Shown here: one piece after another, positions 1,158 to 17,565 of the stretch | Layout of the letters: each line of letters opens with the position of its first letter | Position numbering within the stretch: the stretch's first letter is position 1 | Origin: a bacterium | Lineage (GTDB): Bacteria; Oederibacteriota; PGYV01; Palsa-1178 | Assembly (NCBI GenBank): GCA_037138355.1 | Contig: JBAXIL010000029.1 | Coordinates: 1-22,596, forward strand | Direction of reading: 5' to 3' | DNA: 22,596 nucleotides | Translations under genes and position numbers: made by a program | The notes under the pieces: model-generated | What the model saw: only the letters and a program-made list of their open reading frames with translations | The model's database searches: none | What the model was told of the DNA's origin: nothing

Positions 1158-1607
1158 ATGAGGATTTCAACCAGAGGAAGGTATGCCACAAGAGCTTTGT
1201 TACATCTTGCTACAAAGTATGGTAAATCGCCTGTTTCACTAAAAATAATCTCAATAGATCAGGAAATATCAGTAAAATATCTTGAAAATATAATGCGCCT
1301 GCTTGTTAAGGTAGGCTTAGTAAAAAGTACTAAAGGTAAAAATGGTGGTTTTGTTTTGGCAAAGGCACCAGAAGACATTAACTTGAGTGAAATAGTCACA
1401 GCTGCGGAAGGGTCTATAGATCCAGTTTTTTGCGTAAGTGACCCAGCGAGTTGTAGTCGTGCCAGATTTTGTTCTTGGAGAGATGTATGGTCAGAATTAA
1501 AACTTAGGACAATGGAATATATGAACTCAATTACACTTGCTGACATGTTAGAAAGACAAAATATGAAGGCAAAGATAAAAGTAAAAAACAAAAGCAAAAA
1601 AAAGTAA
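1158..1607 (+). CDS. Rrf2 family transcriptional regulator (IscR/CymR-like, 3 Cys)
   Basis: MRISTRGRYATRAL, EISVKYLENIM, KGKNGGFVLA and CVSDPASCSRARFC; AAGGAG RBS. Confidence 0.93.
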   Translation: MRISTRGRYATRALLHLATKYGKSPVSLKIISIDQEISVKYLENIMRLLVKVGLVKSTKGKNGGFVLAKAPEDINLSEIVTAAEGSIDPVFCVSDPASCSRARFCSWRDVWSELKLRTMEYMNSITLADMLERQNMKAKIKVKNKSKKK

Positions 1608-1804
1608 TATATAAATTAGCAAAATAATTATATTTATTTTGTCCTTTCTAAAAATCCTCTTATTCTGGTTTTTTTAATATAAAAAAATATTAATTACAAA
1701 AAATTCCAAAAAATATTTTCAAATAAATATTCAAAAAAGCAATAAAATCAGCATATTTCGTATCGAAATAAAACAATAATGGTAGCATAATGCCTAAAAC
1801 ATTA

Positions 1805-1833
1805 TTGACAACATACTTTGCAATTGCTATATT
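1805..1833 (+). promoter_or_regulatory. sigma70 promoter of the arsR-tusA-hdr/qmo operon
   Basis: TTGACA (1805-1810), 17-bp spacer, TATATT (1828-1833) with an extended TG at 1825-1826. Confidence 0.75.
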
Positions 1834-1836
1834 AAT

Positions 1837-1866
1837 TTTAAGTTAATGAATTAATAAACTCTTAAA
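1837..1866 (+). promoter_or_regulatory. Candidate ArsR operator (imperfect palindrome over the transcription start)
   Basis: AGTTAATGAATTAATAAACT (1841-1860) matches its reverse complement at 16 of 20 positions; TTTAAG...CTTAAA inverted pair at 1837-1842 and 1861-1866. Confidence 0.45.
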
Positions 1867-1886
1867 CTTGTCAGAAAGGAATGTAA

Positions 1887-2195
1887 ATGAAAGAAATAAT
1901 AAAAATGCAGGCGGACATATGTAAAACATTTGCTAATCCTTCAAGACTTCATATAATTAATCTTTTGTGTAAAAAAGAAATGAACGCTGCGGAATTAATA
2001 AAAACCGTAAAAGTGAGTAAAGCGAATCTATCCCAGCATATGTCCATGTTAATTAGCAAAGGTATTGTAGTATCTCGTAAAGAAGGAGTGAATGTGTACT
2101 ATGTGTTAAGTGATAAAAAAATATCGCAGGCTTGTTCTCTAATGAAAGAAGTTGTCGTGAATTCTATAAATAATAAAATGAAATCAATAAGATAA
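1887..2195 (+). CDS. ArsR/SmtB family transcriptional repressor
   Basis: ADICKTFANPSRLHIINLL, SKANLSQHMSML and RKEGVNVYY; AAGGA RBS. Confidence 0.93.
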   Translation: MKEIIKMQADICKTFANPSRLHIINLLCKKEMNAAELIKTVKVSKANLSQHMSMLISKGIVVSRKEGVNVYYVLSDKKISQACSLMKEVVVNSINNKMKSIR

Positions 2196-2222
2196 GCATA
2201 ATAAAAAAACATGGAGGTTTTT

Positions 2223-2477
2223 ATGACACAAGATGAGTTGAAAGCTATTAAATCAGACAAGATAGTGGATGCGAGAGGTTCTTCTTGCCCAGGACCGTTA
2301 TTGGAGGCAAAAAAAGGCATAGGTGCTGTAGCAGTAGGTCAGATTATAGAGATATTAGCAAATGATCCAGGGACCAAAAAAGACATACCAGCGTGGTCTT
2401 CAAAAGTTGGACAGGAGTGCTTGGGAGTAATAGAAGATCCATCATACGACAGAATTTTTGTTAAAAGACTCAAATAA
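2223..2477 (+). CDS. tusA: TusA/SirA family sulfur carrier
   Basis: VDARGSSCPGPLL (CPxP motif) and NDPGTKKDIPAW. GGAGG at 2213-2217 favours ATG 2223 over 2211. Confidence 0.9.
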   Translation: MTQDELKAIKSDKIVDARGSSCPGPLLEAKKGIGAVAVGQIIEILANDPGTKKDIPAWSSKVGQECLGVIEDPSYDRIFVKRLK

Positions 2478-2531
2478 ATAATCAATAGTAGTATGAGGTT
2501 AATAGTGCTTTTAAAAAAATGGAGATAATTT

Positions 2532-2954
2532 CTGAATACTATAAAAGATAAAACACAAACTAAAGCAAAGATACTTCTGATAACTATGGCGCGCAGTTCT
2601 TATTTAGCGGCGGACGCTTTAGGTCAATTGCATATGGAATACTCTGCTGATGTATATATTATAAAAACTCTATATCCTGGAATATTACCTGCGTATTTTT
2701 ATTTGGATTCATTTCAAAAAGGGATAGATGGAATTATCGTTGCTGCCGCAGGGGCAGATTGTCCGATAGAGGATTCATACAAACAACTGTCTGAAAATAT
2801 TAAACAGGCTCATGCCACTATGACTGAAAAAACAATGAATGTAAAAAGATTAAGACTTACTGCTATTTGTTCGGTTTGTACAAATGCACTATTAAAGGAA
2901 ATAAATCAAATGTCGGAACTAATTAATAAAGAAAAATCAGAAGGTAGATTATGA
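2532..2954 (+). CDS. MvhD/FlpD-like (hydrogenase delta subunit-like) protein, divergent
   Basis: KILLITMARSSYLAADALG and KGIDGIIVAAAGADCP follow the MvhD pattern. The frame is open back to CTG 2532, which follows GGAG (2521-2524); the ORF-track start at 2586 truncates the first strand. Confidence 0.8.
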   Translation: MNTIKDKTQTKAKILLITMARSSYLAADALGQLHMEYSADVYIIKTLYPGILPAYFYLDSFQKGIDGIIVAAAGADCPIEDSYKQLSENIKQAHATMTEKTMNVKRLRLTAICSVCTNALLKEINQMSELINKEKSEGRL

Positions 2955-4231
2955 AAAAATATCATTCCATAGTTGTGGGCGCTGGTATTGCAGGAATGGA
3001 AGCTTCTCTAAATCTGGCTGCACAGGGATATAAAGTATTGCTTGTTGAAAAAGAACCTTCCATAGGCGGCAATATGATAGGGCTGTCAAAAGTATTTCCT
3101 ACGCTTGATTGTTCTTCTTGCATAACAACACCAAAAATGTCAGAAACAGCACATTCTGATAATATAGAAGTAATGACATACGCTGAAGTTTCTTCAATAG
3201 AAAAACAAGAGACAGGTTTTAAGGTAACTGTGCTAAAAAAACCTCGTTATGTGAGTGAAAAACATTGTATCGGATGTAAAAAATGCGAGGATGTCTGCCC
3301 GGTATATGTAAAGCATGAATTTGAAAGAGAGTTAGGTGCCAAAAAAGCTGTATGCATACCATTTACAACTGCTATACCACAAACAGCAGTTTTAGATCCA
3401 AAATACTGTATGCAGTGCGGAAAATGTTATGATGTGTGTCCAACTGAACCTAAATCAATAGAGTTTGATCAAGAACCTGAAACTTTAGATTTTGAGGCCT
3501 CTTCTGTAATAATTGCTTCTGGTTTTAAACTTACAGATATAGATAGAAAGAAAGAATACTCAACTGGAAAAGAAAAAAATGTAGTAGCCGCAATGCAAAT
3601 GGAAAGGATATTAGCACCAAGTGGGCCATTTGGTTCTGTCATGAGACCATCGGATGGAAAACTTCCAGAAAATGTGGCTTTTATTTTATGTGCAGGTTCG
3701 CGTGATAAAAGTATAGGTGTTCCTTATTGCTCACGAGTGTGTTGTATGTATTCAATAAAACAAGCCATGCTGTTATCAGGCGCATTGCCGATAGCGGATA
3801 TTACAATATATTATATGGATATAAGGGCTTTTGGTAAGGGGTATGAACAATTTTATAGAAATGCTGAAGCCATGGGAATAAAGTTTGTCAAAGCAAAAGT
3901 TTCAAAAGTCAAAGAGCTTGAAAATACTGATCTTGAACTTTCTATCGAAGAAATAGAAACATCTGGTTCACCAAAAAAAATAGTTCACGATCTTGTGATA
4001 ATGGCAAATGGAATACTTCCTGAAATAGACCAACTAAAAATGTCAAATGTTGGCACTGACAAATATGGTTTTATAAAACAGGAAAAAATGAAGTATGACC
4101 CGCAGGTGACAAATATAGAAGGGCTATATTTTGCTGGAGTAGCTGGCGGTCCTAAAGATATAACTGATACAATTGCAGAAGCTGGCGCGGCCGCTATGAA
4201 GGCATCAATTTATATTAATAGTAATAAATAA
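2951..4231 (+). CDS. hdrA: HdrA/QmoA-like FAD and Fe-S flavoprotein (short form)
   Basis: GAGIAG Rossmann motif, KVFPTLDCSSC, two CxxCxxCxxxCP motifs, CAGSRD, CSRVCCMY and GPKDI. ATGA overlap with the upstream gene. Confidence 0.9.
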   Translation: MKKYHSIVVGAGIAGMEASLNLAAQGYKVLLVEKEPSIGGNMIGLSKVFPTLDCSSCITTPKMSETAHSDNIEVMTYAEVSSIEKQETGFKVTVLKKPRYVSEKHCIGCKKCEDVCPVYVKHEFERELGAKKAVCIPFTTAIPQTAVLDPKYCMQCGKCYDVCPTEPKSIEFDQEPETLDFEASSVIIASGFKLTDIDRKKEYSTGKEKNVVAAMQMERILAPSGPFGSVMRPSDGKLPENVAFILCAGSRDKSIGVPYCSRVCCMYSIKQAMLLSGALPIADITIYYMDIRAFGKGYEQFYRNAEAMGIKFVKAKVSKVKELENTDLELSIEEIETSGSPKKIVHDLVIMANGILPEIDQLKMSNVGTDKYGFIKQEKMKYDPQVTNIEGLYFAGVAGGPKDITDTIAEAGAAAMKASIYINSNK

Positions 4232-4265
4232 AATATTATTTATAAAAGAACAAAATATGTAAAGG

Positions 4266-6272
4266 ATGGAAGAAATGACTGAATTAGAAAAAACAAATGA
4301 CGCCCCACGCATCGGAGTTTATGTTTGTCATTGTGGAGGCAATATATCTGATGTCATAGATGTAAAGCGCGTCGCTGAAGAAATAGGAAAAATGTCCGGA
4401 GTGACACTTTCTACAGATTATATTTTTATGTGTTCTGACCCAGGACAACAAAAAATAAAAGAAGCTATTAAAGCTGGAACTATAAATAGAGTTGTGGTTG
4501 CGGCGTGTTCCCCAAGATTACATGAGCTGACCTTTAGAAGGGCTTTAACTTCTGTTGGGCTTAATCCATTTCTTCTTGAACATGTAAATATAAGAGAACA
4601 GGGAAGCTGGGTTCATAAAATGGATCATGAGGGTGCAACTGAAAAGGCGATTAGACTCGCACGGGGTGCAGTGGAAAAAGTAAGGCTTGCAAAACCCCTT
4701 GATATGCTTGAAATAAAATCATTACCATCGGCACTTATAATAGGAGCAGGTCCTGCCGGTTTACGAGCAGCAGCTGATTTAAGTCGCAGAAACTCAACTG
4801 TTTATCTTGTGGAAAAGACTCCTTTTACAGGTGGAAATACTGTAAAAATGGGAAAACTATATCCTACTAAGGAAGATGCAAAGGAAATAATAAGTAAGCT
4901 TAATGAAGGAATACATAATAATTTAAAAGTAGTTTTATTTACTAATGCGGAGATTGTTGATTCGGTTGGTGGTATAGGAAATTTTAAAACAAAAATAAAA
5001 CAAGTGTCGCGCGGTATCTTGTCTCCAATGACGGTAGCTGAATTTAAAGAGGCACAAGCGGTATGTCCTGTAGAAGTAGATGATGAGTTTAATTATAAAA
5101 TAAGTAAAAGAAAAGCAATATATATGCCATATGATACTGCATATCCACAAATGCCGGCAATAGATTGGAACAACTGTAATCAATGTGGTAAATGTGCGGA
5201 AGTTGCAAATGGAAAAATTGACCTTAATAAAAAAGAAGAACTTATAGAAATAGAAACTGGTATTGTTATTGTAGCTACAGGCTATGAACATTATCAGCCA
5301 TATGAAGGGGAGTATGGTTTTGGAAAAAATCCTAATATAATTACACTTCCACAGTTAATTAGAATGCTTGACGAAAAAGGACCAACTAAAGGAGCAATTA
5401 CTTATAAAGGAAAGAAAATAAAAAATATAGGTTTTATACATTGTGTTGGTTCCAGGCAACAAGATGGTGCGGATTCTAATAATCCAGAAAAAAGATTAAA
5501 TGCACATTGCTCCAGAGTTTGTTGCACGGCTACGCTTCAGGCAATAAATGAAGTGAAAGAACAAATGCCAAAAGTAAATATATATGATTTATATCAGGAT
5601 ATAAGGACATACGGTAGAGATGCTGAAGAGCTATATTATGAAACGGCTTCAAAATCAGGAACTTTATTTTTTAGATATAATCCAATGCAATTACCAAAGG
5701 TGACTGTTGATAAAGATTCAATAAAGGTTGTGGTCAAGGATTTGCTAACACAAGGTGAAGAAATGGAAATTGAAATGGACATGCTCGTGCTGGCAACTGG
5801 CATGTTGCCAGGGGACCCTGGAGTATTTGCAGATAAATATAAAATGCCAAAATCAATAGATCGATTTTTGCAGGAAGTGCATCCAAAACTGCGTCCTGTG
5901 GAAACCGCAATTGGTGGTATCTTTTTGGCAGGAACAGTTCAGGCCCCTTTTGATACTACTGAAACTACCGCTATTGCAGCAGCAGCAGCTGTAAAGGCCG
6001 CATCTATTTTAGAAGGTGGAACAGTACATTTGGAACCATTTGTAGCAGTGGTTGATAAAATAAAATGTAAAGGGCATGGTAATTGTATAAAAGTATGTCC
6101 AGCTGCTGGCGCTATATTTATTAATAAAGAAAATAATAAAGCAGAAGTAAATCCAGTGCTCTGTATTTCGTGTGGAAACTGTGTGGCTGTATGTCCTGAA
6201 AGAGCAATAGATGTCCAAGGTTTTGAAATAGAAAAATTTGAAAAAATTGTTGATGAAATTATAAAAGTTTAA
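4266..6272 (+). CDS. hdrA: HdrA/QmoB-like FAD and Fe-S flavoprotein (long form, no fused MvhD)
   Basis: RIGVYVCHCGGNI, FMCSDPGQ, AACSPRLHE, NIREQ, GAGPAG, CVGSR, CSRVCC, EVHPKLRPVET and a C-terminal ferredoxin domain. The true start may be ATG 4275. Confidence 0.92.
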   Translation: MEEMTELEKTNDAPRIGVYVCHCGGNISDVIDVKRVAEEIGKMSGVTLSTDYIFMCSDPGQQKIKEAIKAGTINRVVVAACSPRLHELTFRRALTSVGLNPFLLEHVNIREQGSWVHKMDHEGATEKAIRLARGAVEKVRLAKPLDMLEIKSLPSALIIGAGPAGLRAAADLSRRNSTVYLVEKTPFTGGNTVKMGKLYPTKEDAKEIISKLNEGIHNNLKVVLFTNAEIVDSVGGIGNFKTKIKQVSRGILSPMTVAEFKEAQAVCPVEVDDEFNYKISKRKAIYMPYDTAYPQMPAIDWNNCNQCGKCAEVANGKIDLNKKEELIEIETGIVIVATGYEHYQPYEGEYGFGKNPNIITLPQLIRMLDEKGPTKGAITYKGKKIKNIGFIHCVGSRQQDGADSNNPEKRLNAHCSRVCCTATLQAINEVKEQMPKVNIYDLYQDIRTYGRDAEELYYETASKSGTLFFRYNPMQLPKVTVDKDSIKVVVKDLLTQGEEMEIEMDMLVLATGMLPGDPGVFADKYKMPKSIDRFLQEVHPKLRPVETAIGGIFLAGTVQAPFDTTETTAIAAAAAVKAASILEGGTVHLEPFVAVVDKIKCKGHGNCIKVCPAAGAIFINKENNKAEVNPVLCISCGNCVAVCPERAIDVQGFEIEKFEKIVDEIIKV

Positions 6273-6344
6273 GTTTTAAAAATGAAATTATTGAGTGTTT
6301 TAGATTTTGAAATTTGAGTATTGTTGCAAACAAAGGAGAAAGAC

Positions 6345-6623
6345 ATGAAAGGTATTGAGGCAATAAAAAAGTTTAAAGAGAAGCATGGTCCTTTACAAAA
6401 AGAACTTTTGGATTGGATAAGATTTTGCAATACCTCAATGGTATGTATAAGAAAAAAAATGAAGGAAGAACCAATCACTGCACCTCAAGCGGCAGAAGCT
6501 GCTGGAATAAAATCAAATGAAGCGTTTTGGATTATTAATGCTATGAGAAAATATGGAGAAGTGGTAATAGTGGGGGATGATAATGGATATAAAAAGTATA
6601 GCTTGAAGGAAAACATAAAATGA
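6345..6623 (+). CDS. Small winged-helix-like protein of unknown function
   Basis: AAGGAG RBS before ATG 6345; PITAPQAAEAAGIKSNEAFWIINAMRKYGEVV resembles a wHTH; ATGA overlap with the next gene. Confidence 0.7.
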   Translation: MKGIEAIKKFKEKHGPLQKELLDWIRFCNTSMVCIRKKMKEEPITAPQAAEAAGIKSNEAFWIINAMRKYGEVVIVGDDNGYKKYSLKENIK

Positions 6624-7792
6624 TAAAAGTTAATCCTGAATTGATAAAAGATATTAAGAAATATGGCGCTTTTGATGTGTCTGCCTGTTTTAATTGTGGC
6701 AATTGCACAGCGATTTGTCCTTTATCCACAGAAAAATATTCATTCCCAAGGCAAATGATAAGAAGTGCGAGCATAGGGGATGAAAAGACAATTCTTTCAA
6801 AGAAAGAAATGTGGTTGTGTTATTATTGTGGTGAATGCTCAAAAACTTGCCCGAGAGAAGCTAAGCCAGCAGCTTTTATGGCGGCAGCAAGACGCTATGC
6901 AATAGCTAAAGCTGATTTGACAGGCATAACAGGACTTTTATATAAATATCCAATATTTAATTTTATTTTTATGTCTATAATGGCAATAGTATTCGGTCTT
7001 TTTATGTATGCAAACAGGGTAGAGGCAAGAAGTACAGAAAAAATTATAGAAATATTTAATATACCATACCATCTTATACATACGATTGGTTTGGTAGTTA
7101 TAGTATTAGCAACTTTGACTCTTTTGTCTGGTATGTTTATTATTGCTTTAAGAGAAATAGATGTAAAATATATATTTGAATATTTAAAGAAAAATAAAAA
7201 GTTGCTTTTTGATTTAAAATATATTTTCAAACTTGTTAAAAATGTGATATTGACAGTTGGTCAGGAATTGTTTGCTTTCAAACGATTTAGGGAATGCGAT
7301 GAAGAAAAAAAGGAAATACCATTTATGCTAAAACCATGGTTTTTGCATGCTACTGTGGCATGGGGATTTATGGGTTTGTTTTTATCTACTGTAATTGATT
7401 TTTTGTTTAAAGATCCAGCCATAAAAGTGGCGCTTTGGTATCCTCCAAGGTTTTTAGGTATAGTATCTGGTATAGTATTACTTTATGGGGCAACCGTGAT
7501 TATTATAAAGCGCTTAAATGTCAAAGAAGTGAATTATGCTAACAGCACATTTTCTGACTGGTGGTTTATAGGAAATCTTTGGTTTATTGGTTTAACGGGA
7601 TTTGTATTAACTGTATTGGTATATTTGCCGTCAGTAAATCAAAAAACAGCAGATATTTTATTTATATTTCATGTGGCACCAGCAATGCAAATCGTAGTTA
7701 TGGCGGCATTTACAAAATTGGCGCATGTTTTTTATAGAACGCAGGCTTTAGTAGTACATAATCTTAAAGAACAAATTACTAATTTCAAATAG
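6620..7792 (+). CDS. QmoC-like protein: HdrC-type 2x[4Fe-4S] domain plus NarI/HdrE-like membrane heme-b domain
   Basis: CFNCGNCTAICP and WLCYYCGECSKTCPR, about 6 hydrophobic helices, and His in HLIHTIG, WFLHAT, FIFHVA and TKLAHVFYR. Confidence 0.85.
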   Translation: MIKVNPELIKDIKKYGAFDVSACFNCGNCTAICPLSTEKYSFPRQMIRSASIGDEKTILSKKEMWLCYYCGECSKTCPREAKPAAFMAAARRYAIAKADLTGITGLLYKYPIFNFIFMSIMAIVFGLFMYANRVEARSTEKIIEIFNIPYHLIHTIGLVVIVLATLTLLSGMFIIALREIDVKYIFEYLKKNKKLLFDLKYIFKLVKNVILTVGQELFAFKRFRECDEEKKEIPFMLKPWFLHATVAWGFMGLFLSTVIDFLFKDPAIKVALWYPPRFLGIVSGIVLLYGATVIIIKRLNVKEVNYANSTFSDWWFIGNLWFIGLTGFVLTVLVYLPSVNQKTADILFIFHVAPAMQIVVMAAFTKLAHVFYRTQALVVHNLKEQITNFK

Positions 7793-7803
7793 GAGGTGTT
7801 GTT

Positions 7804-8286
7804 ATGGCAGAAGAAACAAAGAAACTTTCAATTATCTGTTTTTCAGGAGATTTTGACAAGGCACTTGCGGCAATGGTTTTAACAAGCGGTGGAAGGGCTT
7901 TTGATTATGAAGTAAACTTATTTTTTACTTTTTGGGGACTTAATATTTTGAAAAAAAGAAGTGGACGCAGGCCAGGCAAAGGCATGTTTATGCAGAAAAT
8001 GTTTAATATGTTAATGGGCGGTCGCAATAATCTGCCTCTTTCAAAGTTTAATTTTGGTGGTATTGGGCCAGAACTTATGAAGGGAATAATGAAAAAGAAA
8101 AATATCAAAGATGTGGATGGTATGCTCCAAGATGCAATACAATTAGGAGCAAAAATTTATGCTTGTGATATGGCAATGAGTGTAATGGGCGTTTCAAAAG
8201 ATGACCTGATAGATGAAATAACAGATATAGTTGGAGTTGCCACATTTATAGCAAATGCTGAAGGTGGACAAGTACTTTTTATTTAA
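7804..8286 (+). CDS. DsrE/DrsE_2 (DsrE2/YrkE-like) sulfurtransferase
   Basis: LSIICFSGDFDKA, FFTFWGL, IYACDMAM (conserved Cys) and VGVATFI...LFI; AGGAGG RBS. Confidence 0.9.
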   Translation: MAEETKKLSIICFSGDFDKALAAMVLTSGGRAFDYEVNLFFTFWGLNILKKRSGRRPGKGMFMQKMFNMLMGGRNNLPLSKFNFGGIGPELMKGIMKKKNIKDVDGMLQDAIQLGAKIYACDMAMSVMGVSKDDLIDEITDIVGVATFIANAEGGQVLFI

Positions 8287-8323
8287 AGAGCAGTTTAATA
8301 CAAAAAAGAGCTTAAAAAATTAT

Positions 8324-8387
8324 ATAGCAGGCAGTATTTAATAGCTTTTTCCTTTTAAAAGCTATCATTTAAGCCTGCTATTTTTTT
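8324..8387 (+). terminator. Rho-independent terminator with a nested double stem
   Basis: Outer stem ATAGCAGGC (8324-8332) pairs with GCCTGCTAT (8373-8381); inner stem ATAGCTTTT (8341-8349) pairs with AAAAGCTAT (8357-8365); T-tract at 8381-8387. Confidence 0.75.
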
Positions 8388-8415
8388 GTCTATATTGTTT
8401 AAAATGTGCTATATT
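8386..8415 (+). promoter_or_regulatory. Putative sigma70 promoter for the thiolase-yciH-ECF unit
   Basis: TTGTCT-N18-TATATT with an extended TG at 8407-8408. Confidence 0.4.
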
Positions 8416-8456
8416 ATATGTATTAAATGACAAATACAGTATTGAAAGGAAATGAA

Positions 8457-9455
8457 TTGAAAGCAATATCTCTCTTGTCAGGCGGATTAGATAGCACACT
8501 TGCTACGAAAATTATTAAAGATATGGGTATAGAAGTAATAGCCCTTAATTTTACATCTCCTTTTTGTCAGTGCGGGGGCAAACATAAAGATGGGTGTAAA
8601 CATAAGGCACAGGAAATGGCCGAACAGTTGGGCGTAGAACTTAAAATGCTCAATAACTCTGTAGAGTTTATAGAAATAATCAAACATCCCAAGTATGGTT
8701 ATGGGAGTGGAGCAAATCCGTGTATAGATTGCAGGATATTAAAGTTTAAGACGGCAAAGAAATATATGGAAGAAATAGGCGCATCATTTATTATTACTGG
8801 TGAGGTTGTAGGACAAAGACCTATGAGCCAAAACAGACGGGCAATGGATATTATAGAAAAAGATAGCGGTTTGGATGGATTGATAGTCCGTCCTTTATGT
8901 GCAGGACATATGAAACCTTCTATTCCTGAAGTAAATGGCTGGATAGATAGAAGTAAACTTTTATCCATTGAAGGTAGGAGCAGAGAAAAACAATTAGATC
9001 TTGTAGATGAGTTTAAAATAGAAAATCACGCTTGCCCTGCCGGGGGTTGTCTGCTAACAGATAAAAATTTCAGTATGAAGATAATGGATTTAAGGAAATC
9101 AGATATGCTTACCCTACCTAATGCCAGACTTTTTGTATATGGAAGATATTTTGCAGTAACTGATAAGTTTAAAATGGCTGTGGGAAGAGATGATGCTGAG
9201 AATAAAATGGTACAAAACTTTGCTTCTTCTGGAGATTTGCTGATAATTCCAGAAGCAAAAGGACCGACTGCTATAGGTCGTGGAGATGTTAGTGATGAAA
9301 ATATTAAAATAGCTCTAGGTATAATAGCTCATTACTGTAAAAAGGATAAGGAACAGATTTTGAATTACAAGGTCTTCCCTGAAGAGTATAAAACCACACG
9401 AGTGGATGAAGTGCCTGAAGTGGATCCAAAACCATTCTCGGTAAATGTGGTTTAA
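8457..9455 (+). CDS. PP-loop ATPase, ThiI/MnmA-like tRNA thiouridylase lacking an N-terminal THUMP domain
   Basis: SGGLDS PP-loop, NPCIDCR, TGEVVGQRPMSQ, RPLCA, GRSREKQ and PAGGCLLTD. TTG 8457 after AAGGA is preferred; ATG 8427 is the alternative start. Confidence 0.8.
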   Translation: MKAISLLSGGLDSTLATKIIKDMGIEVIALNFTSPFCQCGGKHKDGCKHKAQEMAEQLGVELKMLNNSVEFIEIIKHPKYGYGSGANPCIDCRILKFKTAKKYMEEIGASFIITGEVVGQRPMSQNRRAMDIIEKDSGLDGLIVRPLCAGHMKPSIPEVNGWIDRSKLLSIEGRSREKQLDLVDEFKIENHACPAGGCLLTDKNFSMKIMDLRKSDMLTLPNARLFVYGRYFAVTDKFKMAVGRDDAENKMVQNFASSGDLLIIPEAKGPTAIGRGDVSDENIKIALGIIAHYCKKDKEQILNYKVFPEEYKTTRVDEVPEVDPKPFSVNVV

Positions 9456-9473
9456 TAAAAAGGAGTATTTATA

Positions 9474-9710
9474 ATGAAAAAAGAAAATCCATTATCACCA
9501 AAGCCAGAGATAAAATATGAAACCAGAAATGGAAGGAAAGTAACGGTTATTTCAGGGCTACAGACATATGGGCAGTTTCGTTTGAGTGAGATTGCCAGAA
9601 CTTTAAAAGGTCTTTGTGCTACAGGTGGAACAGTGAAGAATGGAAGAATTGAAATTCAGGGAAATAAGGTAGCGGAAGTAGAAGCATGGTTTCAAAAAGA
9701 AAAGAAATAA
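9474..9710 (+). CDS. yciH: SUI1/YciH translation initiation factor homologue
   Basis: RNGRKVTVISGL and LKGLCATGGTVKNGRIEIQG; AAGGAG RBS. Confidence 0.85.
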   Translation: MKKENPLSPKPEIKYETRNGRKVTVISGLQTYGQFRLSEIARTLKGLCATGGTVKNGRIEIQGNKVAEVEAWFQKEKK

Positions 9711-9745: not shown

Positions 9746-10321
9746 GTGAGTGAAGTGGACGAAGATATAAAACTTATGCTTGAACTAAAAGCTGGTCAAA
9801 GAGCCGCGTTTGACAAAATTCTTGATAAATATGAGAAATCGATAGTAAATTATATATATAGATTTACTGGTTCTAAGGAAGATGCAGAAGATTTAGCTCA
9901 GGACACTTTCATAAAAGTTTACAATGCCGCCGCAAAATATACTCCTTCAGCAAAATTCACCACATGGTTATACCGTATAGCTTCAAATGTCAGTATAGAT
10001 TATCTTCGTAAAAGAAAAAAATTAATAAATACAAGTAGTTTGGATGAACAATTTGAAACAGAACAAGGAACGATAAAAAAAGAAATTGCTGATATAAGAG
10101 AAGGTAGTGTTTTAGAAAAAGTTGAAAAAGAAGAGAAAAATAATGAAATTCAAAAGGCATTATTAGCATTGCCTGTGAATCAGAGGTCGGCAATTGTGCT
10201 TAAAATATATGAGGATAAACCCTATATAGATATAGCTGTTATTATGGGGATATCAGTTTCTTCGGTTGAATCATTGATTTTTAGGGCAAGACAGGCTTTA
10301 AAAGATAGGTTAAAAAGATAG
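9746..10321 (+). CDS. ECF (sigma70 group 4) RNA polymerase sigma factor
   Basis: Region 2 EDAEDLAQDTFIKVY...FTTWLYRIASNVSIDYLR; region 4 LPVNQRSAIVL...SVSSVESLIFRARQAL; GTG start. Confidence 0.93.
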   Translation: MSEVDEDIKLMLELKAGQRAAFDKILDKYEKSIVNYIYRFTGSKEDAEDLAQDTFIKVYNAAAKYTPSAKFTTWLYRIASNVSIDYLRKRKKLINTSSLDEQFETEQGTIKKEIADIREGSVLEKVEKEEKNNEIQKALLALPVNQRSAIVLKIYEDKPYIDIAVIMGISVSSVESLIFRARQALKDRLKR

Positions 10322-10365
10322 AATTCAGTAATTGTCAGTATTTCAAAAAAATAATCCAAAATACA

Positions 10366-10394
10366 CCGCAAGTTTTTACCCATGCCTGCGTTTA
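10366..10394 (+). promoter_or_regulatory. Candidate ECF-type promoter upstream of the anti-sigma/cus operon
   Basis: CCGCAAG-N16-CGTTTA resembles the ECF -35 AAC/AAG and -10 CGT geometry; it is a GC-richer island in an AT-rich spacer. Confidence 0.5.
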
Positions 10395-10432
10395 TATATT
10401 AGGAACGAAAATTATCATAAAGGAGATACATT

Positions 10433-10963
10433 ATGAAACATAAAGAAATATTAAGCAAAATTGGTGCTTTATTAGATGGTGAAGTTAAAGCTGAACAAAA
10501 AGATGAAATAATGCAGCATATTAGCACATGTCAAGAATGTTCAAATGAATATAAATCTTTATTGGAATTGGATGCGAATATGAAAAACCTTACTGACCTA
10601 AATCCTCCTTTGTATTTCAGAGAAAAACTGGATAGAAAAATAAAAGAAAATAAAGTAAGCACTTTTGAATTTAATATACTGAAATTAATCCCAACAAGTG
10701 CTGTGCTTGCGGCATTTGTTTTATTTGTTTCAACTTTTATTATTGTGTCTCCTTATATATATGCCACAGATAGTCAGGACCTGCCAAAGCAGGTTGTAAA
10801 CTCTATAAAATCAGCCGTAGTCACATGCATGACTGCTTCTGTTTTTTCCCCAGCGGCTTTTGCAGCTTTTTGTGACAGCTGTAGTATGAATATGTGTGAG
10901 TGTTGTAAAACAAAAGATAAAAATTATGTATGCCATTGTGGAGGTCACAAACATGGGAAATAA
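10433..10963 (+). CDS. zf-HC2 (ZAS) membrane anti-sigma factor with a Cys-rich C-terminal tail
   Basis: LLDGEV...HISTCQEC (HxxxCxxC); TM helix AVLAAFVLFVSTFIIVSPYI; 8 Cys in the C-terminal 45 aa; AAGGAG RBS. Confidence 0.88.
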   Translation: MKHKEILSKIGALLDGEVKAEQKDEIMQHISTCQECSNEYKSLLELDANMKNLTDLNPPLYFREKLDRKIKENKVSTFEFNILKLIPTSAVLAAFVLFVSTFIIVSPYIYATDSQDLPKQVVNSIKSAVVTCMTASVFSPAAFAAFCDSCSMNMCECCKTKDKNYVCHCGGHKHGK

Positions 10964-11219
10964 AAGTAAAGTAGCAGTATTAGCATTGGTCGGTGGAATC
11001 GCATGTTTTTTAAACTTGTTTGGTATTGAAAAGGCTGCACTTGCAATTACAGCAGGTTGGTTAGCATTAAAGGAAATTGATTTGGAAGCAAAAACAGGCA
11101 GATATTTGGCATATGCGGGTATTATTTTAGGGTTCTTGTATATAGTTGTAATTACAATTTTAATAATAGTAAAGGGACCAGAATTTATCACAATGATACA
11201 GAACTTAAAAGGAAAATAA
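10953..11219 (+). CDS. Small membrane protein (DUF4190-like)
   Basis: GGAGG at 10940-10944 before ATG 10953; SKVAVLALVGGI, ALKEI and GRYLAYAGIILG follow the DUF4190 pattern; overlaps the anti-sigma stop codon. Confidence 0.7.
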   Translation: MGNKSKVAVLALVGGIACFLNLFGIEKAALAITAGWLALKEIDLEAKTGRYLAYAGIILGFLYIVVITILIIVKGPEFITMIQNLKGK

Positions 11220-11220
11220 A

Positions 11221-12456
11221 ATGAAGAAAATATTAGCAGTAGTCATGCTTATAACGATGACTTTAACTGGATTAATTAAAGGTGAAACACTGATTATTAC
11301 TGAGAGTGCTGTTGTAAAAGCCGCTCTTGAAAATAATCCAGCTTTAGTAGTCGCCAATAAAATGGCTGATGCGGCAGATGCTGCTTCGCACAAGGAATTA
11401 TGGTTGCCTAATCCTATGGTTGGAATTGAATATATGGGAGTAGCTGATTCAGGTGTAGCTTTAGGAACTGCTACAGGAAAAAACTTAACTGTTTCGCAAG
11501 TTGTTCCTTGGCCATTTAAATATGTTTGGAAAATTGGAGCTGCTGTGTCTCGTTCGGATTATGCAAGGTATATGGCGAAAATGAAAGAACAGGAAGTGAT
11601 AAGCAATGCAAGACAAGCATTTTATGAATTATATAAAATAAACAAGACAATAGTAATTACGCAAGAAGCTTGTTCCATAGTTAAGGAGTTTTCGGAAATA
11701 GCATTTGCTAAATATAATAGTGGTGGTCAATCACAGCAAGATGTATTAAAGGCTGATATAGAAAATCAGACATTACAAAATGAATTGCAGTCTTTAAAAA
11801 GATTAAAACAAATCGCAATTGAAAAAGTTGAAGTATCAACAAACTGGGTACTAAATCTAACATCTACTGTATTTGATTTAGCTGAACCAGAGTTACCTGT
11901 CTTGAAAAATGATTTTGATAAAGTAAAGGAGCAGGTACTTGCAAACTCTCCTATAGTAAAAGCAGCTGTGGCTTCTGCAAATATTGCTGAAAATATGAGT
12001 AGCATGGCAATTTCAGACTATATACCAGACCTAAAATTAACATATAAAAAAATGATAGATCCAAATACTTCTGGTTATTCTTTAATGGCTGAAGCCGAAA
12101 TACCACTTTGGTTTCTAAACAACCAACAGGCTGATATAGGAGAAAAAGGAGCTATGGCTGAAGCTGGCAAAAAAGATGTTATAAATATAAGCAATAATGC
12201 AGTGCTTCAAGCAAGGGAACATTATGAAATAGTAAGTTCGGATTTTAAGACACTGGAGTTATATAAAAATAAACTTATACCACAACTTCAAGCAGCGGTT
12301 AAGTCTATGACTGCAAATTATAAAAGTAAAAAAGCTGATTTTATGGAACTTTTGGATTCGCAGCGCATGTTACTTGAAATGCAAAAAGATTATTACATGA
12401 AAATGGAAGAATATCTAATGCACTATAGAATGTTAGAAGAACTTACAGAAAAATAA
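11221..12456 (+). CDS. TolC family outer membrane efflux protein (CusC/CzcC-like)
   Basis: Signal peptide, [13 protein letters not shown] and [16 protein letters not shown] (OEP repeats); located upstream of the RND genes. Confidence 0.88.
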
Positions 12457-12485
12457 TAATTACAAATATCAACAGGAGGAATAAA

Positions 12486-12692
12486 ATGAAAAAGTTTATG
12501 ATAATTGTGGTAATGTCAGTTTTAGTAGTGATTATAATTGCTACTGGGTGTTCAAATGTAAAGCCTGTAGCAAAAGTTCAAACATCAGGTGCTGCACAGC
12601 TTGTGCAATATACTTGTCCTATGCATCCAGAAGTAATATCGGATAAGCCAGGGAAATGTCCTAAATGCGGAATGGAATTAGTTGTAAAATAA
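12486..12692 (+). CDS. Heavy-metal-binding domain (HMBD) lipoprotein
   Basis: Lipobox-like IATGC after a hydrophobic stretch; [25 protein letters not shown]. Confidence 0.88.
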
Positions 12693-12731
12693 ATTATAAA
12701 TAATGATTTAAGTGAAAAAAGGAGTTCTAAG

Positions 12732-13793
12732 ATGAAAAACAAAAAAGTTCTCATACTGCTTGCTATTCTTGCATTAATTATTGGGGTTGTATTTATTTCG
12801 TGTGCAAAACATTCAGGGGAGAAACAATTATGGACCTGCCCTATGCACCCAAGTTATATAACTGATAAAGCAGGGGACTGCCCAATATGTGGAATGAAGT
12901 TAGTTAAGGTAGAAAAAAGCATAAGTGAAGAACCCAAAGAGCAGAAAAATCAGAACGCAATAGCAGATCATATTGCGGTAAAAATTAGTCCTGAAAAACA
13001 GCAACTGATAAATGTAAGACTTGATAGTGTTGCTATACGGCCGCTTGCAGTAATGGTAGAGGCATCAGGTGTGGTAGCAAATGATCCGGAATTGTATTAT
13101 GTGGAAGAGCAACTTATTGCAGCGGACAAGGCATATAAAAGTGTAATAAAAAGCGGGAGCGTAGGAGACATACAGGATGCTAAAAATAGTTTGAAATCAG
13201 CACAAACACGCATGAAAATTATGGGATTTGATATAAAACAGATTAAAGCGATTGCTTTGAAAAAGTCGCCTGATAAAAGTTTGCTTGCAACTGGAAATAA
13301 CCTCAAGTCATGGATTTACGCTCAAGTATATCAAGATGATTTAAATAATATAAAAAAAGGTGCTTTAGTTGAAATTACTTCTGTTTCAACAGGAAGTGTT
13401 AGTTATAAAGGAAGAGTTGTTGCTATTGATCCTTCACTTAATGCTGAAACAAGAAGTGCACTGGTAAGAATAGCATTTATTAATAAAAACTTTTTGCTCA
13501 AAACAGAAATGTATGTGGATGTAAAAATAAAGTCTTTTAAAGGAAGGTATTTGTCAATTCCAGAAGAAGCGATTATTAACTCAGGCACAAAACAGATTGT
13601 TTTTGTATCAAAGGAAGATGGATATTTTGAACCAAGAAATGTAGAGCTTGGCGAAAAGATTGGTGATTATTATGTGGTTAAAAACGGGTTACTTGAAGGC
13701 GAGAAAATAGTGGTTAATGGAAACTTTATGATTGATTCGGAAAGCCAGTTAAAAGCCGCACTCACTGGGTTTAGTGAAAAGAATAAGAAATAA
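12732..13793 (+). CDS. cusB: RND periplasmic adaptor (CusB-like) with an N-terminal HMBD
   Basis: WTCPMHP...CPICGMKL, IDPSLNAETRS, LKTEMYVDV, IPEEAII and GNFMIDSESQL. Confidence 0.9.
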   Translation: MKNKKVLILLAILALIIGVVFISCAKHSGEKQLWTCPMHPSYITDKAGDCPICGMKLVKVEKSISEEPKEQKNQNAIADHIAVKISPEKQQLINVRLDSVAIRPLAVMVEASGVVANDPELYYVEEQLIAADKAYKSVIKSGSVGDIQDAKNSLKSAQTRMKIMGFDIKQIKAIALKKSPDKSLLATGNNLKSWIYAQVYQDDLNNIKKGALVEITSVSTGSVSYKGRVVAIDPSLNAETRSALVRIAFINKNFLLKTEMYVDVKIKSFKGRYLSIPEEAIINSGTKQIVFVSKEDGYFEPRNVELGEKIGDYYVVKNGLLEGEKIVVNGNFMIDSESQLKAALTGFSEKNKK

Positions 13794-13807
13794 TAAAAGG
13801 AGTTATT

Positions 13808-16800
13808 ATGATAAATCGTATTATTGAATGGTCAGCAAAAAACAGGTTGTTTGTTATTTTAACATCTGTTTTTTTAATTGGCTGGAGTGTATGGTCCATT
13901 AAAAATGTACCGCTTGATGCAATCCCTGACATGACAGATACTCAGGTAATTATTTATTCATCATGGGATAGACCACCACAGATTATTGAAGATCAGGTAA
14001 CTTATCCTATAGTATCAGCATTACTTGGAGCACCTAAGGTAAAAGATGTACGCGCTTTTTCTGATTATGGTTTTTCTTATGTTTATGTAATATTTGAAGA
14101 TGGAACTGATGTTTATTGGGCGCGTTCTCGCGTACTTGAATATTTATCAAAGATACAAAGTCAATTACCGCAGGATGTAAAAACGGAAATTGGACCAGAT
14201 GCAACAGGTGTGGGTTGGGTATATCAATATGCACTTATAGATAAAACAGGTAAAAATTCACCAGAGCAGTTGCGCGCTTTTCAGGACTGGAACTTAAAGT
14301 ATGCTTTGCAATCAGTAAAAGGTGTTGCTGAGGTTGCCTCTATCGGTGGTTTTCAAAAACAGTATCAAGTTATAGTTTCTCCGAATGCACTAAAAGCTCA
14401 GGGTATACCGCTTACAAATGTTGTAGATGCGATTAGAAAATCAAATGAAGCAGCAGGAGCAAGATTGCTGGAGTTTTCTGGTGCAGAGTATATGGTTAAT
14501 ATAGGCGGTTATATAAAAAATAAATCAGATATAGAACAGACCGTTTTAAAAACAACAATGAATGGTACTCCCGTAAGAATTGCAGATGTGGCAAAGGTGG
14601 TGTTAGGTCCTGATATAAGGCGTGGGGTGTCTGATTTTAATGGTATAGGTGAAGCCCCTGGCGGTATTGTTGTAATGCGGTACAAGGAAAATGCTTTTAA
14701 TGTGATACAAAGAGTTAAGAAAAAATTACAGGAAATACAATTACCTGAAGGGGTTGAAGCTGTACCTGTATATGATAGGTCGGATATTATTAATAAAGCT
14801 GTGGGAACACTAAAGAAAAAAATATTTGAAGAAATGGCGTTTGTTGCTTTAATAATTCTGATTTTTTTATTGCATCTTCCTTCGGCTTTTGTCCCAATTA
14901 TTCTTATGCCAGTTGCAGTGCTCATATCTTTTATTCCTATGAAAATGATGGGTCTGACTTCTAACATTATGTCTTTGGGTGGAATTGCAATTGCCATAGG
15001 GGCCATGGTAGATGCTGCCATAGTTGTAGTTGAAAATACACATAAAAAACTTGCTCACTGGAAAGAAAATGGGTCAAAAGGTGATTATAGGTTAGTAATG
15101 TTAGAGGCAATAAAGGAAGTAGCAGGGCCGTCGTTTTTTTCATTGCTGGTGATTGCGGTTTCTTTTATTCCAATATTTACTCTTGAAGGAGCTGAAGGAA
15201 GGCTTTTCAAACCCCTCGCATATACAAAAAACTTTGGAATGTTGTTCTCGGCAATACTTGCCATTACCTTAGCGCCTGCATTGATTATGATATTCATTCG
15301 GGTAAATAAAATATCAATAAAACCAAAATGGTTGAGTGATATATTTAATAATATTTTTGTAGGTGAAATACATTCCGAAGAAAAACATCCAATATCAAAA
15401 TGGTTATTTAAGTATTATGGACCAGCAGTTGATTTTGTTCTGAAAAAACCAAAATTAATTATTAGCTTGGCAATAGCAATAATGATAGGAACTGTGCCTT
15501 TCTTTTTTACTCTTGGCAGGGAGTTTATGCCGGTTTTAAATGAAGGTTCTATATTGTATATGCCTACAACACTTCCAGGGATATCTGTAACACAAGCATC
15601 TGCACTTTTGCAGGTCCAAGATAAAATAATAAAGTCATTTCCAGAAGTAATTAGTGTTTATGGAAAAGCAGGCAGGGCGTCTTCTGCTACTGACCCAGCG
15701 CCATTTTCTATGATGGAAACTACAGTTCTGCTTAAGCCCATGAATGAGTGGCGGCATAAAGACAGGTGGTATTCTAAATATATTCCTAAATTATTGCAGA
15801 GTCCGTTTCGTTTTATTTGGCCCGATACAATTACATGGGACGACCTAATAAATGAAATGGATATGGCTTTGAAAATACCAGGACAGGTAAATGCGTGGAC
15901 CATGCCTATAAAAGGCAGGACGGACATGCTTACGACAGGAGTTCGTACGCCTGTAGGAATAAAAATATATGGCGATGATTTAAGTGTGATAGAAAAGTTG
16001 GGAAAAGAAATAGAGAGTCAAATAACTTTAGTTAAAGGCACTCGTAGTGTATTTTCAGAAAGAACGGCAGGTGGGTACTTTGTGAACTTTAATATCAATA
16101 GAAAAGAAATAGCAAGATATGGGCTCTCTATGAATGAAGTACAAATGAATATAATGGCGGCAATAGGTGGAGAAAATATAACACAAACTATAGAAGGTAG
16201 AGAAAAATATCAGGTTAATGTGCGCTATCCGCGTGATTTAAGAGATAATATAGAACAACTGAAAAAAACATATATAAGCACAATGAATGGAAAACAGATT
16301 CCTTTGTCCTATGTCGCTGACCTAAAAATAGCTTCAGGTCCTGGTATGATAAGGGATGAAAATGGAAAACTTACTGGTTATGTTTATGTGGATGTTAAAG
16401 ATCGAGACATAGGTAGTTATGTAGAAGAAGCAAAAAAGATAATTAAAGATAAAATCAATTTACCTACAGGATACTCAATAGCATTTTCGGGACAGTATGA
16501 GTTTATGCAGAGAGTTAGAGAAAAAATGGGAGTTGTTATTCCACTTACTTTATTTATTATTTTCATACTCCTTTATGTAAATACTCGTTCGTATGTTAAA
16601 ACACTTATTATTTTGCTTGCTGTTCCTTTTTCTATGGTAGGAGCTATTTGGGCACTGCATATTTTTGGTTATAATATATCAGTAGGTGTGTGGTGTGGAA
16701 TAATAGCACTTTTAGGAGTGGATGCAGAGACGGGTGTTTTTATGTTACTTTATCTTGATCTTGCATATAAAGAAAGAAAGGATAAGGGATTGTTAAATAC

Positions 16801-17047: not shown

Positions 17048-17092
17048 AATTTAGTAAGTTTAAGGAATAAAATTTTATAAAGGAGAAACAAA

Positions 17093-17455: not shown

Positions 17456-17529
17456 AATACAAGAGTGAGATGAATTTGTGGAAGAAAATAATAAGATTGA
17501 TAAAACACTTTAGAAAGAAAACGGCAGGT

Positions 17530-17558
17530 TTGACCTCTTGTGATTAAGGTGATATAAT
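17530..17558 (+). promoter_or_regulatory. sigma70 promoter, probably producing a leaderless mRNA
   Basis: TTGACC (17530-17535), 17-bp spacer, TATAAT (17553-17558) with an extended TG. The ATG starts 8 nt after the -10 box, with no SD. Confidence 0.75.
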
Positions 17559-17565
17559 TCAACAT

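Follow-up and report, generated by a model that had tools for sequence, protein, structure and literature searches.

The 22,596-nucleotide stretch of DNA analysed here (the window; contig JBAXIL010000029.1 of assembly GCA_037138355.1, from a bacterium of the Oederibacteriota) carries between positions 1805 and 8387 an operon that, on balance, probably encodes a quinone-linked, HdrA-type membrane complex exchanging electrons with sulfane sulfur on two carrier proteins, TusA and a member of the DsrE2 family. The eight genes are all located on the forward strand in the order arsR, tusA, mvhD-like, short hdrA, long hdrA, wHTH (winged helix-turn-helix), qmoC-like and dsrE2-family, as assigned by Pfam and NCBIfam scans, and the coordinates of the open reading frames (ORFs) give four-base ATGA overlaps at 2951 and 6620. 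Persulfide turnover, the direction of electron flow and the link to the quinone pool are what we infer from protein domains and synteny. The initial annotation of this DNA had already proposed a distinct complex tied to TusA/DsrE carriers, and this proposal gains support from the synteny of both carrier genes in related genomes, from a tree of the QmoC-like subunit and from the absence of aprA. The genes and their products are as follows.

1887–2195, forward: ArsR/SmtB-family regulator, 102 amino acids (aa); PF01022, NF033788 with 73.7 bits
2211–2477, forward: TusA sulfur carrier, 88 aa, with Cys26 in a CPGP motif; PF01206 with 66 bits
2532–2954, forward: MvhD-like subunit (ATG at 2586, likely start CTG 2532); PF02662 with 52.4 bits
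2951–4231, forward: short HdrA-like flavoprotein (QmoA-like), 426 aa, with FAD domain, inserted 2×[4Fe-4S] ferredoxin domain and HdrA signature cysteines
4266–6272, forward: long HdrA-like flavoprotein (QmoB-like), 668 aa, with N-terminal cluster domain, FAD domain and C-terminal 2×[4Fe-4S] ferredoxin domain
6321–6623, forward: wHTH protein, 100 aa, of no described family, between hdrA and qmoC; from ORF and fold model
6620–7792, forward: QmoC-like membrane subunit, with HdrC-like 8-Cys domain and NarI-like part; NF038018 with 184.9 bits
7804–8286, forward: soluble DsrE2/DsrE3-family (PF13686) carrier with Cys121; PF13686 with 158.6 bits

Conservation of the gene set across genomes

A pattern scan of one genome per species returned 579 relatives, from which the best 80 loci were taken, chosen by likeness to the QmoC of the window; their ORFs were searched with the window proteins and one profile-building round. 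Flanks of at least 5.5 kb 5′ and at least 0.8 kb 3′ of qmoC made 56 of the 80 loci testable, and 24 with short flanks were dropped. Within the subfamily sampled this way, the MvhD-like protein and the HdrA pair are found at all testable loci (56/56 each), TusA at 55/56, and the wHTH and DsrE2-family proteins at 53/56 each. The tusA gene always lies directly 5′ of the mvhD-like gene; the dsrE2-family gene is found 5′ of tusA at 35 loci and 3′ of qmoC at 18. Judged by record titles, the carriers of the operon span about 12 phyla with Chloroflexota as the most frequent one, further labels being Bacteroidota, Armatimonadota, Planctomycetota, Acidobacteriota, Myxococcota/'Deltaproteobacteria', Spirochaetia, Latescibacterota, Aminicenantes and Ignavibacteriota, in addition to a Syntrophothermus metagenome-assembled genome (MAG) and two Heimdallarchaeota MAGs. 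The term 'orphan', which the initial annotation had used for the complex, has to be dropped for an operon that is widespread over at least 80 loci. The same annotation had let its case depend on tusA and dsrE being conserved neighbours in homologous clusters, and at 55/56 and 53/56 loci this is what they are.

Other gene families recur in 12 of the 80 flanks at most—those seen comprise histidine kinase, PadR, hemerythrin, LysR, OsmC and YeeE (3 loci)—and the unit hence appears self-contained. One Chloroflexota subclade (L019–L059, with Chloroflexia or Limnocylindria labels) shows a layout of its own: the operon is followed, at about 9.2–11 kb, by a hemerythrin-domain gene, a PadR gene and an unannotated 337-aa gene (11–12 loci each), and several of these loci bear two or three tandem tusA–dsrE pairs 5′ of the operon.

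Two HdrA-like flavoproteins and a QmoC-like anchor

The short HdrA-like protein corresponds to positions 141–561 of the HdrA2 model and matches residues 143–559 of methanogen HdrA (8rvv_A) with 397 bits. Its cysteines C153/156/159/163 and the signature C247/260/264/265 are present in 68/68 family members, and the inserted ferredoxin domain keeps both clusters. The long HdrA-like protein covers HdrA2 positions 1–640—all but the MvhD domain—and ends after the ferredoxin domain. It aligns over its full length with methanogen HdrA 8rvu_a (493 bits), as against 120 + 78 bits at 27–28% identity for canonical QmoB. Its signature C393/415/419/420 is found in 74/75 sequences, and both the N-terminal cluster cysteines and the C-terminal 2×[4Fe-4S] domain are kept. 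At about 16 of 67 related loci the QmoA-like gene is longer and includes a GltD/NfnB-type NAD(P)H module, as Pfam confirmed for three of them; the operon of the window belongs to the commoner short type (49/67).

The N-terminal domain of the QmoC-like subunit matches HdrC, and its eight cysteines, sufficient for two [4Fe-4S] clusters, are near-invariant. H154, H243, H351 and H369 are kept in 80–81 of 81 sequences and about six hydrophobic segments are present, which fits a di-haem b anchor. Its homologs in the protein collection number more than 3000, and among those with a name the nearest (66% identity) stems from a Candidatus Goldiibacteriota MAG. In another genome of the host's phylum, a QmoC-like gene (L122, G133:C6:18089-19222) contains one in-frame TGA, which may reflect gene breakage, an error of sequencing or codon recoding.

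The MvhD-like subunit and its CxVC motif

The probable start of the MvhD-like gene is CTG 2532 in place of ATG 2586, since sequence 5′ of this ATG encodes the first β-strand of the fold. The frame is open back to 2529 and encodes 'KILLIT', the first MvhD strand (13–19 in the model); CTG 2532 lies six bases behind GGAGA, and no ATG, GTG or TTG precedes residue 19 of the fold. Automatic gene calls would hence cut off the first strand of this protein. The fold model (predicted local distance difference test, pLDDT, 91.8) has methanogen MvhD 5odc_D as its top Foldseek match, with a template modelling (TM) score of 0.80 and a root-mean-square deviation of 1.7 over 124 columns.

In methanogen MvhD, a set of cysteines (CCxxC, C, GC and DC) holds a [2Fe-2S] cluster. 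The MvhD-like protein bears neither the CCxxC nor the strand-2 cysteine nor the GC cysteine, and only the last cysteine aligns (C59, kept in 48/70). The fused MvhD domains of canonical QmoB keep four cysteines and show no CxxC further on (7/7). In the TusA-linked family, a CxVC—C95/C98 counted from ATG 2586, C113/C116 counted from CTG 2532—is invariant in 43/43 aligned sequences, its two cysteines recurring in 67/70 and 66/70 of the wider ORF set; apart from this motif, no column of the family has cysteine in at least 70% of its members. According to the model, the CxVC is positioned in the loop between the fourth strand (107–111) and the N-terminus of the last helix (117–136). A CxxC at the N-terminus of a helix is the classic geometry of a redox-active dithiol. 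The loops following the strands of the MvhD fold would share one edge, which is the cluster-bearing edge in MvhD.

We therefore propose that the cluster site of MvhD has been replaced by the invariant CxVC, a putative swap that appears specific to the TusA-linked lineage and is new here. Together with the strict tusA–mvhD adjacency, this motif suggests that an adaptor, which in methanogens connects hydrogenase or formate dehydrogenase to HdrA, has turned into a thiol interface for the carriers. The swap thus offers a residue-level hypothesis for the place where sulfur chemistry meets the electron-transfer chain. Predictions of a complex of the MvhD-like protein and TusA scored 0.00 in both runs, which were done without controls, and carry no weight either way.

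Sulfur carriers, wHTH protein and ArsR regulator

TusA is strongly conserved (mean column identity 60%). Its C26 is kept in 74/74 family members, and no variation occurs at C26, P27, G28 or P29 across 41 aligned sequences. The DsrE2-family protein keeps C121 in 76/76. For both proteins, the operon copy is the only one in the genome of the host—the sole TusA and the sole PF13686 gene. The name DsrE2 is used here as a family label only, since the protein is soluble by hydropathy and far under the equivalog cutoff: no hydrophobic 19-residue window reaches 1.6, so the transmembrane helices of a strict DsrE2 are missing, and the score against NF047629, the DsrE2 equivalog, is 67.6 bits at a cutoff of 210. 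Its nearest solved chains are 2qs7_A and 3pnx_A ('putative sulfurtransferase DsrE'). Strict DsrE2 of the Allochromatium DsrE2A type bears two transmembrane helices, as stated in the accessible part of PMC12998232.

The 100-aa protein encoded between long hdrA and qmoC has no Pfam or NCBIfam match. It is modelled as a winged helix-turn-helix (pLDDT 91), its best PDB matches being MarR and ArsR-SmtB regulators at a weak TM score of about 0.5, and no cysteine is conserved across its family. The initial annotation had placed the whole unit under an ArsR repressor. An ArsR/SmtB gene does stand at the head of the operon, but with a profile derived from the window a homolog is found at the head of just 28/56 related loci. 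Repressors of the BigR/SqrR/sHdrR type, which sense sulfane sulfur, have a conserved pair of sensing cysteines. The ArsR protein of the window scores 49.9 bits against the BigR model (cutoff 155), and its three cysteines C12, C28 and C83 are kept in 11/39, 4/39 and 28/39 homologs, respectively.

Relation to APS reductase and canonical Qmo

The host genome (1.66 Mb, 91 contigs, 94% complete) holds no aprA, the gene of adenosine-5′-phosphosulfate (APS) reductase: the best match scores 38.9 bits where 641.75 are required, and it belongs to an sdh/frd cluster as its flavoprotein. Over the same assembly no dsrA is found, and the CCG/HdrB family (PF02754) has 0 matches, with a control search positive in 12/14 genomes. 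A Pfam scan of the window also agrees with the initial annotation that none of aprAB, sat, hdrB, lbpA and hydrogenase genes is located in it. Among 50 carrier genomes drawn from the 80 loci, aprA exceeds its cutoff in 4 and is missing from 46, and an AprA homolog within 8 kb is found at 0/80 loci. In the four genomes with aprA (G022, G029, G035 and G049), this gene adjoins a qmoA–qmoB pair of its own on a contig other than that of the TusA-linked operon; G022 shows a full aprA-qmoA-qmoB-qmoC row. Canonical and TusA-linked Qmo hence coexist as paralogs in these genomes. The G022 MAG is labelled Bacteroides sp., for which its canonical row (L102, G022:C74) and its TusA-linked loci (L034/L091, G022:C81) are unexpected, and a binning error is possible.

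The same separation is visible in the membrane subunit. Against the qmoC model NF038018 with its cutoff of 300, the window protein reaches 184.9 bits and the TusA-linked copies reach 170–216, with one intermediate at 260, whereas copies that neighbour canonical qmoA/qmoB (in G022 next to aprA as well) reach 354–424 bits. In a phylum-wide sample around G029, 2 QmoC sequences over the cutoff occur among 61 genomes. A quick maximum-likelihood tree (IQ-TREE, 85 rows, SH-aLRT support, no bootstrap) splits five canonical QmoC sequences from all others at 100% SH-aLRT and groups the window with three MAG sequences, two of them labelled Spirochaetia, at 98–100% support. Two findings would have spoken against a distinct complex according to the initial annotation, namely subunits branching inside canonical QmoABC and a constant co-occurrence of aprAB. 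The QmoC-like subunit is positioned outside the canonical clade, and aprA, as described above, does not co-occur.

Host physiology

A NuoH homolog (413 bits) and an sdhCDAB/frd-like cluster make a quinone-based chain likely in the host. No haem-copper oxidase family gene is found in its genome; among carrier genomes, 26/51 have a COX1-family gene, and the module is therefore not confined to strict anaerobes. Haem-b-type enzymes (the QmoC-like subunit and the sdh/frd anchor) are encoded in the host. HemB/ALAD is not found in the host MAG, MenG is not found over cutoff, and one weak MenA-like prenyltransferase stays under all equivalog cutoffs. At 94% completeness such gaps are not proof of absence, and haem and quinone may be scavenged or their genes may have been missed in the assembly. 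The host bears no YeeE sulfur importer, and YeeE occurs in 3/80 flanks of related loci. A single GcvH-family gene is located on another contig (C21). The module is present in 11/99 genomes of the host phylum, in 8/60 of the high-quality ones and in 1/2 other genomes of the same genus. Sequence of the window itself occurs in 20 freshwater or lake metagenome runs from 12 studies, 6 of which contain at least half of the sampled words.

Proposed mechanism and alternatives

The operon would encode a five-subunit complex on the Qmo/Hdr plan, made of two HdrA-type FAD/[4Fe-4S] flavoproteins, the QmoC-like subunit, a cluster-less MvhD-like adaptor and the wHTH protein. The QmoC-like subunit would be an HdrC-type 2×[4Fe-4S] domain fused to a NarI-like di-haem b anchor that faces the quinone. 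As dedicated partners, TusA and the soluble DsrE2-family carrier would take the place of APS reductase. Sulfane sulfur, carried as a persulfide on TusA Cys26 and DsrE2 Cys121, would be handed to, or taken from, the CxVC dithiol in the MvhD-like subunit, located at the [2Fe-2S] site of MvhD beside HdrA. The two electrons of the thiol/persulfide couple might then be exchanged with the quinone pool, in either direction, via the HdrA flavin, the Fe-S chain and the haems of QmoC. A third port, of low potential, could be provided by the ferredoxin domain of the long HdrA.

As for the direction, net oxidation—from sulfide or carrier thiol to quinone—is tentatively favoured over reduction, though far from assured. 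Transfer of electrons from sulfide to menaquinone is energetically downhill and would be so in every host type. By homology, MvhD is the entry side and HdrC the high-potential exit, and characterised TusA + DsrE pairs feed oxidative pathways (PMC11094781). The lean to oxidation also draws on the module being equally frequent where a haem-copper oxidase family gene is present and where it is absent. Run the other way, the same complex would use quinol—probably together with reduced ferredoxin, by a flavin-based confurcation as proposed for Qmo of sulfate reducers—for reducing TusA/DsrE2 persulfide or polysulfide to H2S, be it as an electron sink of a fermenter or for the removal of toxic sulfane sulfur. 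This is possible but doubtful. With menaquinol at about −74 mV and persulfide/sulfur at about −270 mV, the reaction goes steeply uphill, and even ferredoxin would barely balance it; organisms such as the 26/51 carriers with haem-copper oxidase family genes have few low-potential donors, and the lack of YeeE in the host and its rarity in the flanks (3/80) do not speak for sulfur uptake either. On the other side, a host with Nuo- and Sdh/Frd-type quinone enzymes and no haem-copper oxidase family gene looks like an anaerobe in need of quinol sinks, the long HdrA keeps the ferredoxin domain required for a low-potential booster, and an ArsR-type repressor at the operon head is typical for stress and detoxification operons. 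Moreover, Qmo of sulfate reducers, the nearest characterised relative, runs reductively according to the accessible part of PMC10504309.

Rather unlikely is a new flavin-based electron-bifurcating enzyme with sulfur as the donor. Sulfide would be loaded as persulfide on TusA/DsrE2 at the CxVC, whose dithiol/disulfide couple in the cluster-less MvhD would occupy the electron-entry position of Mvh-Hdr, and the electron pair would be split between menaquinone and ferredoxin. Menaquinone would be reached via the HdrC-like domain and the QmoC haems, which take the position of the high-potential acceptor, and ferredoxin via the C-terminal domain of the long HdrA; in variants with the GltD module, NADP+ might be the low-potential acceptor. 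The mean potential of menaquinone and ferredoxin is about −260 mV, matching sulfur/sulfide at about −270 mV. If this were true, ordinary heterotrophs of many phyla would make low-potential reductant from sulfide.

A complex working independently of sulfur, as a ferredoxin- or NAD(P)H:quinone oxidoreductase or a bifurcating enzyme, with TusA, DsrE2 and MvhD-like protein in accessory roles such as cofactor maturation or redox regulation, is improbable. It would explain why no recognised sulfur-converting catalytic subunit is present, and the GltD/NfnB-like module at about 16/67 loci means that pyridine nucleotides can be a partner. The next gene in the window, encoding a ThiI/MnmA-like PP-loop enzyme (8427–9455), is of a type that draws on TusA-type sulfur relays, but none of the 80 loci has a homolog of it, and the carriers are retained at 55/56 and 53/56 loci across phyla with invariant active-site cysteines. 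The change of the MvhD-like protein from cluster site to CxVC, found specifically in the TusA-linked lineage, also argues against such accessory roles. An ordinary QmoABC serving APS reductase in sulfate reduction or sulfite oxidation shares the subunit plan, and qmoC is the best NCBIfam match of the membrane subunit. This reading is nonetheless contradicted by a 94%-complete genome with no aprA, dsrA or CCG domain, by the qmoC score of 184.9 under a cutoff of 300 that Apr-linked copies pass at 354–424, by the split of the five canonical sequences in the quick tree, and by the four genomes in which both forms coexist; it is highly improbable. Hardly any more credit is due to a variant of sHdr that oxidises carrier-bound sulfur to sulfite. 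No HdrB/CCG protein is encoded genome-wide, with the control positive in 12/14 genomes, which contradicts this variant; in addition, the operon bears no lipoate-binding protein, the single GcvH-family gene lies on another contig, and sHdr has no QmoC-type membrane anchor. What the two have in common, in line with the accessible part of PMC11094781, are TusA, a DsrE-family carrier, an HdrA-like flavoprotein and an ArsR-type regulator.

Several observations weigh against the quinone-linked exchange with carrier-bound sulfur that we prefer. None of the subunits encoded in the operon bears a catalytic sulfur site of the known types (CCG/HdrB, molybdopterin or sirohaem), and the proposed chemistry hence rests on the putative role of the CxVC. 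With an ArsR gene at only 28/56 loci and without a conserved cysteine pair, a sulfane-sulfur-sensing repressor is not established. Supply of haem b and quinone in the host is unproven, given the missing ALAD and MenG and the weak MenA-like protein, and the patchy occurrence in the host phylum marks the module as an accessory trait. The locus counts describe the subfamily of the window QmoC and not all Qmo-like complexes, since the loci were chosen by likeness to that QmoC. Evidence for expression consists of two short contigs, 2320–2522 (tusA) and 8040–8278 (dsrE2), from an RNA library that was probably made of the source sample; they may be DNA carry-over and are too little for claiming transcription or an operon transcript, while stretches lacking cover carry no information. 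Finally, Apr-serving and TusA-linked forms are not cleanly separated. At L103 (G049:C569) and L109 (G090:C80), qmoC lies beside a canonical-type qmoB, at L109 also beside aprA; in the tree, these two Apr-linked QmoC are placed among the non-canonical rows next to the TusA-linked L106/L107, on long branches that make their placement unsure. Some Apr-serving complexes may thus derive from the wider non-canonical group, which would agree with type II Qmo in sulfate reducers as reported in the accessible part of PMC10504309.

Operon borders and regulatory elements

The window is AT-rich (GC 0.28–0.37), and its long ORFs are almost all on the forward strand. The operon is bounded by the following elements.

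1805–1833, forward: sigma-70-like promoter, TTGACA-17-TATATT with TG extension; 11/12 matches, top of 35 sites in 1500–9600
1830–1856, no strand: inverted repeat TATTAATT-N11-AATTAATA, a candidate operator overlapping the −10 box
8325–8387, forward: intrinsic-terminator-like hairpin followed by U7; from folding

In total, promoter-like sites in 1500–9600 are no more frequent than in shuffled sequences, so that the support for 1805–1833 is based on its position only. The inverted repeat might be a chance product of the AT-rich surroundings (GC 0.275). A consensus terminator scan gave no site 3′ of dsrE2; the terminator-like structure came from direct folding of 8284–8400, where a long hairpin at about 8325–8380 and a U7 ending at 8387 give −29.1 kcal/mol (z −3.2, 1/200 shuffles as good). 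The next promoter-like site follows at 8386–8415. Gene order, strand, ATGA overlaps, promoter and terminator had all been named in the initial annotation and are borne out by the ORFs, the Pfam and NCBIfam scans, the promoter scan and the folding. Independent lake metagenome assemblies carry the operon unchanged; one contig of run X2 corresponds to 2114–9279 with 0 differing letters.

Neighbouring genes

Directly 3′ of the operon, behind its own promoter-like site, the gene at 8427–9455 encodes a ThiI/MnmA-type PP-loop ATPase whose C-terminal part is an RNA-binding NFACT-R_2 domain. On the 5′ side, two Rrf2-family regulators (IscR/CymR-like, under equivalog cutoffs; 1–432 and 1158–1607) stand on either side of a reverse-strand gene for a PNPOx-like flavoprotein (460–930). 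As neither the Rrf2 nor the PP-loop neighbours have a homolog in the 80 loci, they are considered to lie outside the unit. Further downstream, a metal-resistance block (9746–21239) encodes an ECF sigma factor, a zf-HC2 anti-sigma factor, an outer-membrane factor, a 68-aa HMBD protein, a CusB-like fusion protein with HMBD, a CusA-like RND pump, a YHS protein, a DEAD-box helicase, a CopZ-like HMA protein and a CopA-type P-type ATPase.

Comparison with known systems

Canonical type I QmoABC of sulfate reducers and green sulfur bacteria shares with the operon of the window two HdrA-derived flavoproteins, the HdrC-like 2×[4Fe-4S] domain with a NarI/HdrE-like di-haem b anchor, an MvhD-type module and a presumed link to the menaquinone pool. 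It differs in its partner, which is AprAB in place of TusA/DsrE2, and in the absence of the additional wHTH gene. In canonical QmoB, the MvhD domain is fused to the C-terminus and bears four cysteines (7 examined) and no CxVC, whereas here MvhD is a separate 5′ gene with CxVC; the long HdrA of the window is also much nearer to methanogen HdrA than to canonical QmoB. Methanogen MvhAGD-HdrABC and Fdh/Elp-MvhD-HdrABC (5odc, 7bkb, 8rvu) have in common with the operon the full-length long HdrA, the MvhD fold and the HdrC-like N-terminus of QmoC. In contrast to them, the operon encodes no HdrB, hydrogenase or formate dehydrogenase, the cluster ligands of MvhD are lost, HdrC is fused to a membrane cytochrome b, and the HdrA dimer has become a pair of one short and one long protein. 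The sHdr-LbpA system likewise has a cytoplasmic HdrA-type flavoprotein, TusA and DsrE-family sulfur transferases and often an ArsR-type regulator. However, it includes HdrB1/B2, a separate HdrC, LbpA and lipoate genes, none of which is found in the operon, and the latter adds a second HdrA, an MvhD-like protein and a quinone-facing membrane anchor.

The closest likeness might be to type II, or HdrA-like, Qmo, whose QmoA/B-like subunits—as those of the window with 493 and 397 bits—are nearer to HdrA than to bacterial QmoAB, in a comparison with methanogen HdrA chains and a canonical QmoB. Type II Qmo is said to have been described by Chernyh et al. in 2020; Ammonifex degensii and Vulcanisaeta moutnovskia provide its published references. 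In the accessible parts of Neukirchen et al. (PMC10504309) and of the DiSCo study (PMC8477390), a 'distinct' or 'type II' HdrA-like QmoABC is reported to occur with or without Apr/Dsr, its function being called unknown and experiments being called for; the examples with a role are Apr-linked sulfate reducers, and TusA, DsrE, a Cys-less MvhD or wHTH are not mentioned there. A full-text literature search, covering main texts and not supplements, gave no description of the TusA/DsrE/Cys-less-MvhD/wHTH gene set nor of a link between type II Qmo and TusA, and the accessible parts of PMC10504309, PMC12142623, PMC12998232, PMC8528874, PMC6397845 and PMC8477390 do not describe the set. The remark of the initial annotation that no characterised system has this composition thus stands for the gene set in the literature found, but has to be narrowed in that HdrA-like type II Qmo is already in print (PMC10504309, PMC8477390, as far as accessible).

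Most of the groups that carry the operon, from Chloroflexota and Goldbacteria-type bacteria to MAGs labelled Heimdallarchaeota, are not counted as sulfur cyclers. If protein-bound sulfane sulfur is linked to the quinone pool, a hidden cytoplasmic turnover of sulfide and persulfide would take place in many 'fermenters' and heterotrophs, and the puzzle of type II Qmo without Apr/Dsr would have a testable answer. Newly described here are the swap of the cluster for CxVC with respect to canonical QmoB, the presence of both Qmo types in four genomes, the patchiness in the host phylum and the even split of carriers by oxidase. Qmo and Hdr complexes have a central part in sulfate reduction and methanogenesis, and the TusA-linked operon, tied as it is to the universal sulfur carriers TusA and DsrE, represents a sister form built from the same parts.

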